Below are positions 7,247-12,379 of a stretch of DNA of 13,417 nt, piece after piece. Position 1 is the first letter of the stretch. The number at the start of each line of letters is the position of its first letter. Position numbers and translations under genes: made by a program. The stretch comes from a virus (lineage: Duplodnaviria > Heunggongvirae > Uroviricota > Caudoviricetes): positions 1-13,417 of IMG/VR virus record IMGVR_UViG_2526164690_000043. The stretch is one strand, 5' to 3'. The notes under the pieces are model-generated. The model worked only from the letters and a program-made list of their open reading frames with translations. It was not told the DNA's origin and did no database searches.

Positions 7247-7519
7247 ATGGTACATGACCGCATAGCGGAAGAGCTGGAGGCGAAAGGCTTTTACCGGAGA
7301 GCGTCGGCGCGATGGGGTGAAGTCATGCAGCTGGTGGAGACAGACAAGGAACGGCATCACATCACGATGCGACGGCTGGAATGTTGCAGGAAGGCACAGA
7401 GGCCACCGGAGCCACCGGATAATTACGGAGACCTGAAAAAGGCAGTCGATCGCACTTATGCCGAAATGGGGATAGATGGTGCTGGTGATGAAATATGGCG
7501 CAATTACCAGGACAGCTAA
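7247..7519 (+). CDS. PerC/Pch-like small transcriptional regulator (tentative)
   Basis: Start taken at ATG 7247 (MVHDRIAEELEAKGFYRRASARWGEVMQL...) just after a GAGGGGTGGGG tract. The IAEELEAKGFYRRAxxRWxEVM motif resembles PerC-family activators as recalled; this is not verified. Confidence 0.5.
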   Translation: MVHDRIAEELEAKGFYRRASARWGEVMQLVETDKERHHITMRRLECCRKAQRPPEPPDNYGDLKKAVDRTYAEMGIDGAGDEIWRNYQDS

Positions 7520-7526
7520 TCACACA

Positions 7527-7549
7527 GCCGGAGAAATCCGGCTTTTTTT
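7527..7549 (+). terminator. Rho-independent terminator
   Basis: GCCGGA-gaaa-TCCGGC hairpin followed by seven T residues, 8 nt after the stop of the PerC-like gene. Confidence 0.7.
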
Positions 7550-7644
7550 GCACCAGTTGAAACGGTATGGCGCATTACCGGGTTTTCGTCACGGTCTGGC
7601 ATAGTTACTATCTGAAACAAACAGACACAACAGAGGAAAAAACA

Positions 7645-7986
7645 ATGCCGATGAAATTTGATGAGATATTAAAACAGCGTGATAAATACCATGCTGACAA
7701 CATGGAGACGATGAGCATCAATGATTACCGCGCATTCCTGGAGACGGGCGCACTGATTGAAAAGGATCAGCATGGTTTTGTGAGATGTGCTCTATCCGGT
7801 GAAATGCTGGCGGTAAATCCTGAACAGATAGATGCATTGATAGAATTTCTGAAAGGGATCAGGACTGAGCACGCATACAGCCGGAGCAATCCGGTCTTTT
7901 TGTCATTTTTTGTAAATTATTTGTTCGTGGTTGTTCCACGTTGTTCACTGACAGGATCGGCATATTTTACCCGAACTGAATCATGA
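7645..7986 (+). CDS. Hypothetical protein; 3' end uncertain
   Basis: ATG 7645 with GAGGA 7 nt upstream. The open frame runs through a terminator-like hairpin and T run at 7881-7911, and its last ~35 residues (FLSFFVNYLFVVV...) look like translated T-rich non-coding DNA. The real product may end near 7868 if a 1-nt indel lies around 7852-7857. Confidence 0.45.
   Translation: MPMKFDEILKQRDKYHADNMETMSINDYRAFLETGALIEKDQHGFVRCALSGEMLAVNPEQIDALIEFLKGIRTEHAYSRSNPVFLSFFVNYLFVVVPRCSLTGSAYFTRTES
7881..7911 (+). terminator. Second terminator-like hairpin, near-identical to the one at 7527
   Basis: CCGGA-gcaa-TCCGG followed by TCTTTTTGTCATTTTTT. It shares the ACAGCCGGAG-AATCCGG core with the 7527 hairpin. 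Confidence 0.45.
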
Positions 7987-8004
7987 GTATTCTCGCCCGT
8001 GGTG

Positions 8005-8153
8005 CCAGGACGCTGGGGCCACTTTCCCGCCTGTTAATGTGCTCGCCAATATTCATTACCAGGCGGGAAAACGATCGGTGCGATTGCTGATTTCCTTATG
8101 AAAAACGGTTGAGTGTTTGCCGCGTCCTGGAGTTCCTTACTTAACCCCAGGAC
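8005..8153. promoter_or_regulatory. Structured leader upstream of the capsid operon: nested inverted repeats plus a GGTGCGAT motif
   Basis: Outer inverted repeat CCAGGACGC (8005-8013) / GCGTCCTGG (8122-8130), with another direct CCCAGGAC at 8146-8153. Inner perfect 11-bp inverted repeat TTTCCCGCCTG (8023-8033) / CAGGCGGGAAA (8060-8070). GGTGCGATT at 8078-8086 matches the motif repeated at 2741-2835. Confidence 0.35.
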
Positions 8154-8160
8154 TTTTTTT

Positions 8161-9318
8161 ATGCCGAGAATAATCGAATTACGCCAGCAGAAAACCGCCA
8201 TTAAAAATCAGATGCGCGACATGCTGGAGAACGCGGAAAAAGAAAACCGCAGTCTTAACGATGCTGAGGGCGCAAAATTTGACGAATTACGCGCTAAAGC
8301 TGAATCCCTCGATAAAGACATTTCCCGCCTTGAAGCCATTGCAGACGAAGAGCGCAGCAAGCCAGGTAAAAGCAGTCAGACCACTGACCCCGCAGAACTA
8401 CGCAACTACATTCTGACAGGTGAAACCCGCGCATTAAGTACAGGCGTTCCCGCTGATGGTGGTTATACCGTTATCCCTGAACTGAACACCGAAATCATGC
8501 GAATGCTGGCGGATGAATCCACCATGCGCCGCATCTGTACCGTGAAGAAAATCAGCAGCAACGAGTTTAAGCAGCTTGTTTCCGCTGGCGGTGCGACCGT
8601 TAACCACGGTGAAGAGGGTAAGGCACGCGAACAGACCAGCCCCCCGCAGATTAACGAGGTGAGCATTAAGCTGTATCCGGTCTATGCGTACCCGCGCACC
8701 ACACAGGAAATCGTGGATTTTTCCGATGTGGACATCCTTTCATGGCTGACGGGTGAGATTGGCGACACCTTCACGGAAACCGAAGAAAGCGATCTGGTTG
8801 TGGGCGACGGTGACAAAAAAGCAAAAGGTTTTTTATCCGTACCCCGTGCAGAGAAGAACGACAAAGAGCGTGATTTTGGTACGTTGCAGGTAATTAAACC
8901 TTCCGAATCTCTGGCGTGGACATCTGCGGACCCGCTGATCGACCTGAAATTTGCATTACGTAAAAATAACCGCAAAAACGCGGTCTGGGTGGTTAACTCC
9001 ACGACGGCGGCAAAACTTCAGAAGGTGAAGAACGCGAACGGTGATTATATCTGGCGCGACCGTTTACAGGCGGGTGATCCTGATACGTTGCTGGGCCTTC
9101 CGGTCGAATATCTGGAGTTTATGCCTGATAACGTTATTGCCCTGGGTGACTTCAAACGCGGTTACTACATTGTTGATCACGAAACAGGTGTTCGCACCAG
9201 ACCGGACAACCTCACAGAGCCGGGCTTCATCAAAATTTTCACGCAGAAATATTTAGGCGGTGGCGTGGTGGATTCGAACGCGATCAAGATTCTGGAACTG
9301 CCACAGGACGACGATTAA
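8161..9318 (+). CDS. HK97-fold major capsid protein
   Basis: Start taken at ATG 8161 (MPRIIELRQQ...); the ORF track's GTG at 8113 lies inside the inverted-repeat leader. Coiled-coil-like N-terminal region (ELRAKAESLDKDISRLEAIADEE) followed by a ~280-aa body typical of HK97-family capsid proteins. Confidence 0.88.
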   Translation: MPRIIELRQQKTAIKNQMRDMLENAEKENRSLNDAEGAKFDELRAKAESLDKDISRLEAIADEERSKPGKSSQTTDPAELRNYILTGETRALSTGVPADGGYTVIPELNTEIMRMLADESTMRRICTVKKISSNEFKQLVSAGGATVNHGEEGKAREQTSPPQINEVSIKLYPVYAYPRTTQEIVDFSDVDILSWLTGEIGDTFTETEESDLVVGDGDKKAKGFLSVPRAEKNDKERDFGTLQVIKPSESLAWTSADPLIDLKFALRKNNRKNAVWVVNSTTAAKLQKVKNANGDYIWRDRLQAGDPDTLLGLPVEYLEFMPDNVIALGDFKRGYYIVDHETGVRTRPDNLTEPGFIKIFTQKYLGGGVVDSNAIKILELPQDDD

Positions 9319-9328
9319 CAGCATACAG

Positions 9329-9357
9329 AAGGGGCTTAAAAGCCCCTTTAGTGTTTT
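9329..9357 (+). terminator. Hairpin with a weak T tract between the capsid and protease genes (possible attenuator)
   Basis: AAGGGGC (9329-9335) / GCCCCTT (9342-9348) stem followed by TAGTGTTTTAT. Confidence 0.35.
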
Positions 9358-9371
9358 ATGGGTGAAAAATT

Positions 9372-9931: not shown

Positions 9932-11146
9932 ATGTGGCCTTTTCAGAAGAAAAAAAAGAGCAGCGCTAGCATGACGCTTGATGAGTTTATGGCGCTGGCT
10001 GGCACATCGAACACGGGGGCGGGTGAGTACGTATCATCGGGGACAGCGGAATCACTGCCCGCCGTCATGAACGCCGTCACGGTCATCTCTGAGGCGGTGG
10101 CTACCATGCCGTGTTACCTGTACCTGGTACGCAATGAGAAGGGGAAGGAGGCCCGAGAGTGGCTTGATTCTCATCCGGTCGATCACATCCTCAACGAGCG
10201 CCCGAACGCATGGCAAACCCCCTACCAGTTTAAGCGAATGATGATCCGCCACTGCCTGTTAAACGGTAATGCTTATGCGGTGATTCAGTGGGGGCGTGAT
10301 GGTTTTCCGGTGGCTTTACATCCTTACCCGCCGCAGTCGGTGAACGTTGAGCAGACAGGTGAGCATAACTGGCGCTACTGCATCACTGACGCCTACACCG
10401 GAAACACCCGCAACTATTTACCGTGGGAGGTTCTCCACCTTCGTTACTCCACGGATGACGGTTTTATGGGGCGCTCACCTGTAACCATCTGCCGCGAATC
10501 GCTGGGGCTTGGGCTGGCCCAACAACGCCACGGCGCGAGCGTGATGCGTGATGGCATGATGGCGGCAGGGGTTATCACGTCAGGCGAATGGCTGGACGGC
10601 GTGAAGGGCAAACAGGCATTAGCCGCACTGGAACGCTACAAAGGGGCCAGAAACGCCGGAAAAACGCCCATCCTTGAAGGGGGTATGAGCTATCAGCAGC
10701 TGGGCATGAGTAATCAGGATGCTGAATGGCTGGCCTCCCGTCGCTTCACCATTGAAGACATCGCCCGAATGTTCAACGTCTCGCCGATTTTTCTGCAGGA
10801 ATACAGCAACAGCACCTATAGCAATTTCAGCGAGGCAAGCCGCGCATTTCTCACCATGACGATGCGCCCGTGGCTGGCGAACTTTGAGCAGCAGATAAAA
10901 AACGCCCTGCTGGTGGCCTCGCCTGTACCTGGTATCCGGTATCAGGTGGAGTTTGTACAGCGCGGACCTGTTACGGGCCACACCTGGCGAACGCTTTGCC
11001 ACCTATGAACGCGGCATCAAATCCGGCGTTATGTGCCCGAACGAAGCCCGCGAACGTGAAGGGCTGTCCCGCGTGATGGTGGTGATGAGTTCAGCCAGGC
11101 ATGGAAACAGGAAGTAAAAATCAGCGAGGGAGAAAAACCGGAATGA
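9932..11146 (+). CDS. HK97-family portal protein, with two compensating 1-nt indels near the 3' end
   Basis: The open frame from ATG 9932 stops at 11006-11008. The +1 frame encodes the expected portal C-terminal sequence ...YSADLLRATPGERFATYERGIKSGVMCPNEAREREGLS, and the original frame resumes as PRDGGDEFSQAWKQEVKISEGEKPE with a stop at 11144-11146 that overlaps the next start (ATGA). The breaks are at a TTT/G site near 10952-10955 (extra base) and a CCC run at 11068-11070 (missing base). Confidence 0.82.
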
Positions 11147-11481: not shown

Positions 11482-11774
11482 CAGAAGAACTTATCACCCT
11501 GGAAGAAGTGAAACTCCATTGCCGCATCGATGGCGACGAGGAAGACCAGTTAATCAGCGGATACATTGCCGCATCGCTTGAGGCGTGCCAGATACATATA
11601 GGCAGGCGCTTTGATGACGGGCTGGAGTTCACGCCGGCCATAAAGATTGGCTGCATGATGTTTATCGCTCACCTGTACGAGAATCGCCAGCTGGTAGCGG
11701 ATAACGCAAAAACACGCGTACCCATGACGATAGGCGCACTCTGGACGGCTTACCGTGATGTGGGGGTGTACTGA
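11478..11774 (+). CDS. gp6-like head-tail connector protein
   Basis: 98-aa ORF with an ATGA start overlap. The N-terminal ITLEEVKLHCRIDGDEEDQLISGYIAAS is characteristic of the gp6-like connector / DNA-packaging family. Confidence 0.75.
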   Translation: MTEELITLEEVKLHCRIDGDEEDQLISGYIAASLEACQIHIGRRFDDGLEFTPAIKIGCMMFIAHLYENRQLVADNAKTRVPMTIGALWTAYRDVGVY

Positions 11775-12213
11775 TGCCGTGGCAACCATTAAGACGATGT
11801 ACAGAACCAGGCTGTAACAGGCGCGTTAAGTCCGGCAAGTGTGAGGAGCACAGGCGGGCGGCATGGCGTGCAGAGGATGCCAGACGAGGACACCGCCGCG
11901 CGCGTGGGTACTCCAGACAGTGGGAAAAATACCGCGCCATGTATCTGAGTAAAACCCGTTATGCGTGCGATGCCTTGAGAAGGGGATATATACGCCCGCC
12001 GTGGTGGTGGATCACATTATCCCGATTAATGGCGGTGATGATGTTCTCTTCTGGCCCGAATGGAACCATCAGCCATTGTGCCAGGCGTGTCATAACCAGA
12101 AAACGAAGTGGCTTGATCCGGCAACAAAAAGCAAGCGTGCCGCAGGTGGATTTCGTGAAGAGGAAGAACGGGCCGCTAACCGCAATAACTGGATGTATGA
12201 CGCTGATGAATGA
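11774..12213 (+). CDS. HNH endonuclease (terminase-associated), interrupted by a 1-nt indel at the A run 11951-11954
   Basis: The N-terminal part (MPWQPLRRCTEPGCNRRVKSGKCEEH...RGYSRQWEKYRAMYLSK) is in one frame; the HNH core (NPLCVRCLEKGIYTPAVVVDHIIPINGGDD...WNHQPLCQACHNQKTKW) is in the -1 frame, ending at 12213. AAAA to AAAAA at 11951-11954 joins them. The ORF track's 201-aa read-through from 11774 is an artefact of this shift. Confidence 0.8.
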
Positions 12214-12379
12214 GCGGGAACAAAACCGCCTTATCCGTGGACTTATAAGGCAGCGTGACGCATGGAAGACACAGGAAACAGGGCATAAAGATAAAGCGTC
12301 AGGACGCGCAGAACGCATCACAGCGAAGCGATTAACCGACCGTGACCGCGAGGTTATGGAATGTTTCCGCAATCGCTGA
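12206..12379 (+). CDS. Hypothetical small protein between HNH and the small terminase
   Basis: ATG 12206 overlaps the HNH stop; 57 aa (MNEREQNRLIRGLIRQRDAWKTQETGHKDKASGRAERITAKRLTDRDREVMECFRNR). No recognisable family. Confidence 0.4.
   Translation: MNEREQNRLIRGLIRQRDAWKTQETGHKDKASGRAERITAKRLTDRDREVMECFRNR

Follow-up and report, generated by a model that had tools for sequence, protein, structure and literature searches.

A putative RNA switch in the leader of the capsid operon of an EcCIEDL933-like phage-inducible chromosomal island

The DNA analysed in this work (the window) comprises the 13,417 nucleotides of the IMG/VR virus record IMGVR_UViG_2526164690_000043, and carries a capsid-forming phage-inducible chromosomal island (PICI) similar to EcCIEDL933 (O-island 51, OI-51, or CP-933C), with a DNA identity of 98.6% over positions 7502-8399. 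The matching stretch in the chromosome of E. coli O157:H7 EDL933 sits between roxA and phoQ, which is the location of OI-51/CP-933C, and EcCIEDL933 is the prototype of the capsid-forming PICIs (10.1101/2022.09.08.507074). The region under study is the leader of the capsid operon, located immediately ahead of the major capsid gene, where nested inverted repeats had been noticed at positions 7987-8160. Analysis of this region led us to propose that the repeats supply the pairing segments of an RNA switch acting in cis within the leader, in which a terminator that also sequesters the Shine-Dalgarno (SD) sequence would compete with an anti-terminator. We assign to this proposal a probability of about 0.6.

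Hairpins and repeats of the capsid leader

The leader contains three hairpins, designated H_A, H_B and H_C, and three short segments, designated A, B and C, with overlapping pairing potential:

7999-8022, plus strand: hairpin H_A, with outer stem GUGGU/GCCAC, inner stem CCAG/CUGG and loop GACG; -15.6 kcal/mol on its own, and present in the minimum-free-energy folds
8005-8013, plus strand: segment A, CCAGGACGC, the 5' inner arm and loop of H_A and also the 5' arm of the 9-bp outer repeat
8023-8070, plus strand: hairpin H_B, corresponding to the 11-bp repeat and directly abutting H_A; -22.6 kcal/mol, with a variable interior
8071-8121, plus strand: variable linker
8122-8130, plus strand: segment B, GCGUCCUGG, able to pair with A or with C
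8124-8134/8143-8153, plus strand: hairpin H_C, followed by seven U residues (U7, 8154-8160); -14.1 kcal/mol, reaching the capsid start codon
8146-8153, plus strand: segment C, CCCAGGAC, the 3' arm of H_C, which holds the capsid SD sequence AGGA

The repeat search recovered the two inverted repeats described in the initial annotation. The inner one is a perfect 11-bp repeat at 8023-8033/8060-8070, which extends to 17 nt (8023-8039/8054-8070) with a single mismatch (94% complementary); it is enclosed by the outer one, in which CCAGGACGC (8005-8013) and GCGTCCTGG (8122-8130) pair at 9/9 positions. The direct copy that had been noticed next to the capsid gene proved to be CCCAGGAC at 8146-8153, a copy of the arm at 8005-8013 whose end lies 7 nt ahead of the capsid ATG (located at 8161, not 8162). 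In addition, a third inverted repeat, absent from that annotation, was found between 8124-8134 and 8143-8153 (11 nt, one mismatch), followed by seven T residues and then by the capsid ATG, so that the direct copy is in fact the 3' arm of a terminator-like hairpin. Dinucleotide-preserving shuffles of 7987-8160 generated a perfect inverted repeat of at least 11 bp in 14 out of 5000 cases, and a pair of perfect repeats of 9 bp or longer in 3 out of 5000. The RNA folding proposed as a check of the repeats gave a z score of -4.2 for 7987-8165, and none of 200 shuffled sequences folded as well. As a single sequence, the minus strand folds about equally (z = -4.1), so the assignment of the strand rests on the comparative data presented below.

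The hairpin at 8124-8153 combines seven G-C-rich basal pairs with U7, as expected from the sequence of an intrinsic terminator, and no T-run is present for the minus strand. All window-type copies carry U7 or U8 after H_C (U8 in the case of EDL933), and by these features H_C plus its U-run looks like an intrinsic terminator. The AGGA at 8149-8152, 8 nt before the AUG, is the only SD-like sequence. The helix between A and B (9/9 bp) shares 8124-8130 with H_C and, consequently, both helices are mutually exclusive, as in the platform of an attenuator. In folds of transcripts ending at 8131 or 8142 the A:B helix belongs to the minimum-free-energy structure; once C is transcribed, the combination of H_A and H_C is favoured (-66.2 vs -55.3 kcal/mol). 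These modelled energies would fit a kinetic switch.

Conservation and alternative pairing among related islands

A homologous leader was found upstream of 174 of the 232 related capsid loci with enough upstream sequence, corresponding to 119 distinct leaders from which 38 representatives were selected. The repeats are therefore conserved in homologues; a lack of such conservation had been set as grounds for dismissing them. The set includes divergent islands (capsids 63-75% identical) in E. coli chromosomes and in IMG/VR contigs, and in E. coli almost every copy of the window-type leader has an identity of 94% or higher. Leader and capsid gene travel together: in many E. coli genomes the match is restricted to 7874-8400, and in others to 7500-7901, which places the boundary of the module at a terminator-like hairpin at 7880-7895. 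Among deposited phages, the majority-type leader (the type present in most loci) appeared in only three records, namely the satellite-sized vB_KppS-Ant (16.5 kb), a Salmonella fragment of 3.8 kb and a Klebsiella record of 106 kb, and the window-type leader had no match in the phage collection; the capsids of recognisable full-size phages (ca. 37 kb and larger) are at most ca. 40% identical. About a quarter of the related capsid genes (many loci, L169-L220), the majority of them preceded by A+T-rich sequence, have no H_A/B/C leader. A scan of the genome collection with the capsid as query returned only 5 loci, and the upstream regions from Symbiopectobacterium showed no leader by eye.

Most leaders share a common plan, in which H_A (GUGGCA-CUCA-GACG-UGAG-CCGCCAC) is followed by an adjacent H_B, a pyrimidine-rich linker and a 3' half composed of GGUUUCACGUC (B), a loop, ACGGAAACC (C, with an SD-like GGA), around 5 nt and the AUG. 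An SD-like GGA, GAGA or AGGA is located in the 3' arm that pairs with B in every leader type. A covariance model built from 36 majority-type representatives, with every window-type sequence excluded, gave exactly one match per locus in 96/96 loci, each ending at the capsid start codon. When applied to the 13.4-kb window, this model produced one significant match, at 7993-8103 on the plus strand (23.2 bits, E = 2.4e-5), the next one having an E value of 1.6.

RNAalifold predicted H_A, H_B and H_C, with compensatory changes at 17/24 pairs. In the 96 distinct majority-type sequences, 96.8% of the cells were paired, in comparison with 36-48% when the partners were slid, and 13 pairs were changed on both sides, a number reached in 0/500 shuffles. 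Most of this covariation signal is carried by H_B, where 10 of the 11 pairs changed on both sides with pairing kept. H_A was paired in 99.8% of the cells across all 96 leaders, with 3/9 pairs changed on both sides. The ratio of G-U to A-C cells was 106 : 10, an excess that points to plus-strand RNA rather than to DNA sites or to the minus strand. Altogether, these data support the existence of a structured leader before the capsid operon, as initially annotated, with hairpins kept through compensatory changes in distant relatives and located downstream of invariant -10 and -35 positions.

The alternative A:B pairing was also examined across lineages. Leaders of the majority type can pair the loop and 3' arm of H_A (GACGUGAG) with UUCACGUC in B, and 768/768 cells were paired, as opposed to 24-69% when slid. 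One A:B column changed from U-A to G-C in 11 sequences, and the partner within H_A changed from A to C in exactly those 11; a change from A to G in the loop results in a G-U pair in 2 sequences. In the leader of the EC416 type, the A:B helix is extended on the other side (UCAG with CUGA). The window lineage has a C-G at the variable column and forms a 9-bp A:B helix in a different register, made by the 5' arm and the loop, with C altered to match B. Both A and B are invariant in 30 distinct window-type leaders, including that of locus L066, whose linker differs from 8071-8121 at about 27 of 51 positions (ca. 47% identical). A:B complementarity is kept in each of the four leader types despite their differing sequence and register, with joint changes of A, B and C in several lineages. 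A search of the rest of the island for another copy of A or B that might act in trans gave no matches beyond chance.

The covariance model placed its 3' end, corresponding to the capsid start (CAUGAAA), on an internal UUAUGAAAAAC at 8096-8106 of the window leader. Also in this region, GATTTCCTTA (8089-8098) recurs as GAGTTCCTTA (8130-8139). The 3' half of the window-type leader (B, the terminator and the new MPRII... start) may have originated as an insertion or duplication downstream of an older start site.

Promoter, upstream motifs and island genes

The region upstream of the leader contains the elements of a putative sigma-70-type promoter and several DNA motifs, one of which has a counterpart near alpA:

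7880-7911, plus strand: terminator-like hairpin (7880-7895) and T-run closing the upstream replication and accessory genes (terminator scan)
7909-7917, plus strand: TGTAAAT box, TTTGTAAAT, present once in the window
7921-7950, plus strand: three 10-bp-phased direct repeats TTGTTCnnnn, between the TGTAAAT box and the -35 element
7966-7971, plus strand: putative -35 element TTTACC, separated by a 16-nt spacer from the -10
7988-7993, plus strand: putative -10 element TATTCT
ca. 1250-1312, minus strand: six-copy GTTGTTC array with a 10-bp period, between int and alpA, in opposite orientation to 7921-7950

Alignment of the 38 representatives on H_A revealed a high conservation of both promoter elements. 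In the -10, T-12, A-11 and T-7 were present in 38/38 and T-10 in 35/38; 16 nt further upstream, the -35 element TTT(A/T)C(A/T) showed its first three T residues (-34 to -32) in 38/38, 38/38 and 37/38, and the spacer motif TTTTCATGTA was conserved as well. From the placement of these elements we infer that transcription starts around 7999-8001, at the first bases of H_A. In locus L070 the control region is preceded by a divergently oriented gene, which indicates that the capsid operon has its own promoter.

The TGTAAAT box starts 80-82 nt upstream of the -7 T in 37/38 representatives, with an intervening sequence of two unrelated types. The motif TTGTTCN4TTGTTC was found 8 times in the window vs 1.6 expected, a count reached in 0/200 shuffles, and a late-promoter regulator encoded by the island may bind to the repeats at 7921-7950. 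In vB_KppS-Ant a different, TTCAT-type unit (TTCATG/C-like) is present at both the early and the late site, which suggests that one island-specific DNA-binding protein serves both; our guess is that AlpA, as the obvious candidate, binds these arrays. The initial annotation had also considered the inverted repeats themselves as a site for a late-promoter activator. The repeats do not fit this function, since the activator-like DNA motifs lie upstream, at 7909-7950, and the inverted repeats show the G-U over A-C asymmetry of a plus-strand RNA.

Other observations were made on the upstream DNA. The window contains a second 10-bp-phased array, of the GACACAA type, at 1513-1565. A leader subtype represented by L124, vB_KppS-Ant (L241, 12097-12125) and many other loci has a G+C-rich hairpin with a T-run between the direct repeats and the -10, overlapping the position of the -35; in the window subtype the corresponding terminator-like hairpin is located instead upstream of the TGTAAAT box (7880-7911). 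Separate from its capsid leader, vB_KppS-Ant carries downstream of its primase gene (11720-11960) a dense set of GTGAACA/TGTTCAC iterons in either orientation, presumably the replication origin of the island.

The genes identified in the window, all of them on the plus strand, are the following:

1-1230, plus strand: tyrosine integrase (Pfam)
1595-1783, plus strand: AlpA-family gene, 62 aa (PF05930, E = 3e-18)
4366-4665, plus strand: DUF4222 protein, 99 aa, corresponding to RgdR (ECs1581)
at the position of the DUF927 replication gene of EDL933, plus strand: AAA_25 protein
between the AAA_25 gene and the PerC homologue as listed, plus strand: SSB gene
7238-7519, plus strand: PerC homologue, corresponding to PchE of OI-51
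8161-9318, plus strand: HK97-type major capsid gene, the first of its operon (Pfam Phage_capsid, E = 1.1e-60; the EDL933 copy is annotated as capsid in RefSeq)
after the capsid gene, plus strand, in this order: prohead protease, portal, head completion protein and connector
after these, plus strand: open reading frame (ORF) of 201 aa at the position of the HNH gene of EDL933, followed by the small terminase subunit

On the basis of the Pfam matches in the window and of its identity to EcCIEDL933, the island is a capsid-forming PICI. The gene set that defines these elements, namely int, alpA and primase along with their own capsid, protease, portal, connectors, HNH, TerS and TerL, without tail or lysis genes, is the one annotated in EDL933 for the roxA-phoQ interval. 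RgdR is a published activator of the type III secretion genes of the locus of enterocyte effacement, and PchE has been described as the PerC homologue of OI-51 (published OI-51 work). In the island of EC416 (L002), a gene of the ProQ/FinO family occupies the place of the PerC homologue.

Single-base indels relative to EDL933 were detected at 9365, 9397, 9943-9967, 10956, 11069, 11951 and 12492, affecting the protease, portal and HNH-region genes. The protease gene of the window is apparently broken into several short ORFs, the portal ORF has 358 aa vs ca. 403 in EDL933, and the ORF of the HNH region exceeds the length of the gene annotated in EDL933. This indel-rich copy is either decaying or contains indel errors from the assembly. 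At 7862 the window has lost one G of the EDL933 sequence (GATCAGGGACTGA to GATCA-GGACTGA), as a result of which the conserved 74-aa ORF phrog_1957 has no stop and extends across the terminator and the late promoter up to 7986; the listed 139-aa ORF (7567/7645-7986) is an artefact of this indel. The phrog_1957 product was considered as a cognate regulator of the leader and rejected, as it is absent from the fetched flank of 81/174 leader-bearing loci. Finally, another terminator-like hairpin (9 bp, then a T-rich tail) is located at 9328-9349, 10 nt past the capsid stop and before the protease gene. It is a possible partial terminator setting the ratio of capsid to downstream products, and its location right after the capsid gene suggests that read-through matters in the capsid operon.

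Proposed switch, alternative explanations and significance

In the proposed switch, transcription would start at ca. 7999-8001, and the RNA would open with H_A, followed at once by H_B, to generate a leader of ca. 160 nt. Once transcribed, B and C would form H_C, which would constitute the default OFF state: the capsid SD sequence would be hidden and, in the window lineage, U7 would also release the transcript at the capsid AUG. Such an OFF state would keep the resident island from making heads. In the ON state, segment A, freed from the inner stem of H_A, would pair with B, so that H_C could not form and both transcription and translation of the capsid gene would proceed. Since A must first leave the inner stem of H_A to pair with B, H_A would act as an anti-anti-terminator. 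Among the functions offered by the initial annotation, antitermination or translational control thus provides the best fit, because the 9-bp outer repeat competes with the SD-burying, U7-ended hairpin.

The A:B helix might be favoured by a protein bound to H_A, which is almost invariant, in the way Com binds the mom leader of Mu, or by an altered elongation of the RNA polymerase loaded at the activator-dependent promoter; another option would be a protein-mediated processive antitermination, which would make the RNA alternative redundant. Our guess is that induction of the helper phage brings about the trigger, either a factor or a change in RNA polymerase not present beforehand. Tests for a sensor revealed neither a leader peptide nor an Rfam aptamer, and the conserved sequence of H_A could be a protein site. 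A bolder version, which we regard as unlikely, is that H_A-H_B-B-C constitutes a satellite-specific sensor RNA of a new class, whose H_A is either read by a helper or host factor or modifies RNA polymerase in the manner of put or EAR. If true, the RNA would license the satellite to make capsids only in the presence of an active, tail-supplying helper.

Several observations weigh against the switch. The support for A:B comes from one covarying column and from re-registration at the level of lineages, which represent few independent events, and a pattern scan of viral contigs for further states of the A:B column gave only the two known states plus chance matches. H_C showed no double changes in the majority type and is neither supported nor refuted by covariation, due to the almost invariant sequence of this hairpin. 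The alignment used to count pairs (A5) was fitted to the structure of the model, which biases the counts towards that structure, and in the window leader the covariance model aligned correctly only H_A and H_B, its 3' part being misplaced. Furthermore, majority-type leaders have no U-run after H_C, which makes termination specific to the window lineage. Lastly, the OFF fold is ca. 11 kcal/mol more stable than the ON fold.

One alternative is a static structured 5' untranslated region, without switching, in which H_A and H_B protect the 8-kb late mRNA from decay dependent on its 5' end or form a processing site (e.g. for RNase III), and H_C tunes capsid translation or read-through at a fixed level. 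Under this explanation it would be natural that the putative start puts H_A at the extreme 5' end, that H_A, H_B and H_C together make up the minimum-free-energy fold, that H_B is the best-supported helix and that no trigger was found. However, it leaves unexplained the 8-9 bp of complementarity between A and B in four leader types with co-ordinated changes of A, B and C, as well as why an operon that needs to be expressed would have a full terminator with U7-U8 right ahead of its first gene, and we consider it unlikely. We see even less likelihood in a protein-mediated processive antitermination similar to that of lambda Q, in which a helper or island factor would join RNA polymerase at the late promoter and take it past H_C and subsequent terminators, the A:B pairing being secondary. 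The arrangement of a promoter, a leader of ca. 160 nt and an intrinsic terminator right before the first gene is what such a system would have, and matches that of the lambda PR'-6S RNA-tR' region (a late promoter, a leader of ca. 160-190 nt and an intrinsic terminator before the structural genes); in addition, the promoter spacer TTTTCATGTA is unusually conserved, and there is another terminator-like hairpin at 9328-9349. On the other hand, the first 25 transcribed bases contain no -10-like pause element, and 7999-8025 no TAnnnT-like one, no Q-binding element was seen, the island ORFs tested yielded no Q-like protein and no Q-family Pfam match, H_C is not followed by a U-run in most relatives and, unlike that of lambda, this leader has an anti-terminator pairing of its own. 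P. aeruginosa AlpA acts on the same arrangement of elements at PalpB-tB (PMC7969949), where the terminator also lies immediately upstream of the first ORF and AlpA binds an element in the promoter spacer, the part that is conserved in the island leaders (PMC7969949, PMC9371919). The P. aeruginosa protein has a 21Q-like fold with a helix-turn-helix at residues ca. 126-142 (PMC7969949, PMC9371919). The island AlpA is an unrelated, excisionase-like PF05930 protein of 62 aa that shares with it only the name, and was rejected as an antiterminator of that type: its sole relative in PDB was 8c3t_A, with no P. aeruginosa AlpA chain at E values up to 1.

The remaining explanations are all improbable. 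The terminated leader of ca. 160 nt (7999 to ca. 8160) could be a trans-acting small RNA, for instance one bound by Hfq at the terminator hairpin and U tail, given that a promoter, a structured body and a Rho-independent-type terminator with U7-U8 is a form common among the island small RNAs of enterohaemorrhagic E. coli (EHEC) (PMC4104026). This is improbable: leaders of the majority type lead directly into the capsid AUG without a terminator, no further complementary copies exist in the window beyond chance, and none of the RNAs from the Hfq study maps beside these genes (its supplementary files). Identity with Esr41 or another known small RNA of EHEC islands was rejected, Esr41 lying in OI-43/SpLE1, and the literature search found no paper with both "CP-933C" and "sRNA". 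It is still less probable that the repeats act as DNA, either as paired operators for a looping regulator or as a packaging (cos/pac) or replication site. Binding sites co-evolving with a protein would also vary co-ordinately, and the single-sequence fold is equally good on both strands, but the 106 : 10 ratio of G-U to A-C is strand-asymmetric, the stems vary yet keep pairing and the repeats lie downstream of the inferred start. Moreover, the virion-derived record of vB_KppS-Ant begins 22 nt before terS, which, assuming that the record ends are the physical ends, suggests a cos near terS; its leader is internal, at 12088-12298, and not beside terS at the record end, which led us to reject a cos/pac site, and its origin-like iterons are elsewhere. 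Least probable of all is a leader-peptide attenuator in which translation of a short ORF from the ATG at 7983 would open H_A. An ATG is conserved there in most leaders, and many of them have a 10-codon ORF ending inside H_A; nevertheless, its absence from 30/119 distinct leaders and the spread in ORF length, from 4 to 44 codons, argue against this explanation, and this ATG has no upstream SD and is located in the promoter spacer (-17 to -15), upstream of the putative start.

Returning to the leader RNA switch, its closest parallels are the leaders with terminator, anti-terminator and anti-anti-terminator, such as those of the trp type and the platforms of riboswitches. The capsid leader shares with them a set of four segments whose pairings (A with the 5' arm of H_A, A with B and B with C) are mutually exclusive, and its last helix is, by its sequence, terminator-like and would also hide the SD. 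In contrast to them, it has no conserved leader peptide, no recognisable aptamer (the interior of H_B varies) and no match in Rfam, and in most relatives the last helix would only sequester the SD. In phage Mu, a hairpin hides the SD sequence and start codon of the late gene mom, and the small protein Com opens it by binding to an adjacent upstream hairpin. This is a plausible model for the sensing of H_A, although no Com-like zinc-finger protein was identified in the island and the opening would occur here through the long-range A:B helix. The put RNA of HK022 is a cis-acting antiterminator RNA whose mechanism needs no alternative pairing. It resembles the capsid leader in having two directly adjacent stem-loops at the 5' end of a terminator-containing phage operon; a put-like RNA was rejected, since a cmsearch of the whole HK022 genome (model R1, default filters) gave no match at E values up to 10. 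In the immunity system of satellite P4 (seqA-seqB/CI-seqC) and in the c4 RNA of P1/P7, a processed trans-acting RNA controls an early or immunity operon. As in the capsid leader, two same-sense segments of one leader are complementary to a third one and govern premature termination and translation; unlike them, the element described here heads a capsid operon and showed no similarity to any Rfam family, phage antisense RNAs included. P4-like satellites share the AlpA/Vis and primase genes with PICIs (PMC10111431).

Searches of the whole window against Rfam 15 gave nothing at gathering thresholds (phage antisense and immunity RNAs included), a permissive search of 7800-8300 gave only noise (best hit 16.8 bits vs a threshold of 245), and no tRNA or tmRNA was found. 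No description of this leader or of the control of the capsid operon was found in the PICI and OI-51 literature searched. The leader, which matches no Rfam family, is a new RNA family within a known kind of regulator.

Capsid-forming PICIs make their own heads and take only the tails from helper phages. The control region of the capsid operon brings together an activator-type DNA array in common with the alpA region, a promoter with invariant key positions and a leader that would be able to prevent transcription of the capsid gene as well as its translation. Should the switch be real, it would be the step that silences the resident island and times head production to the late phase of the helper, and it would represent a new cis-regulatory RNA family, widespread in satellites that move between species and occur in Escherichia, Shigella, Klebsiella and Salmonella records.

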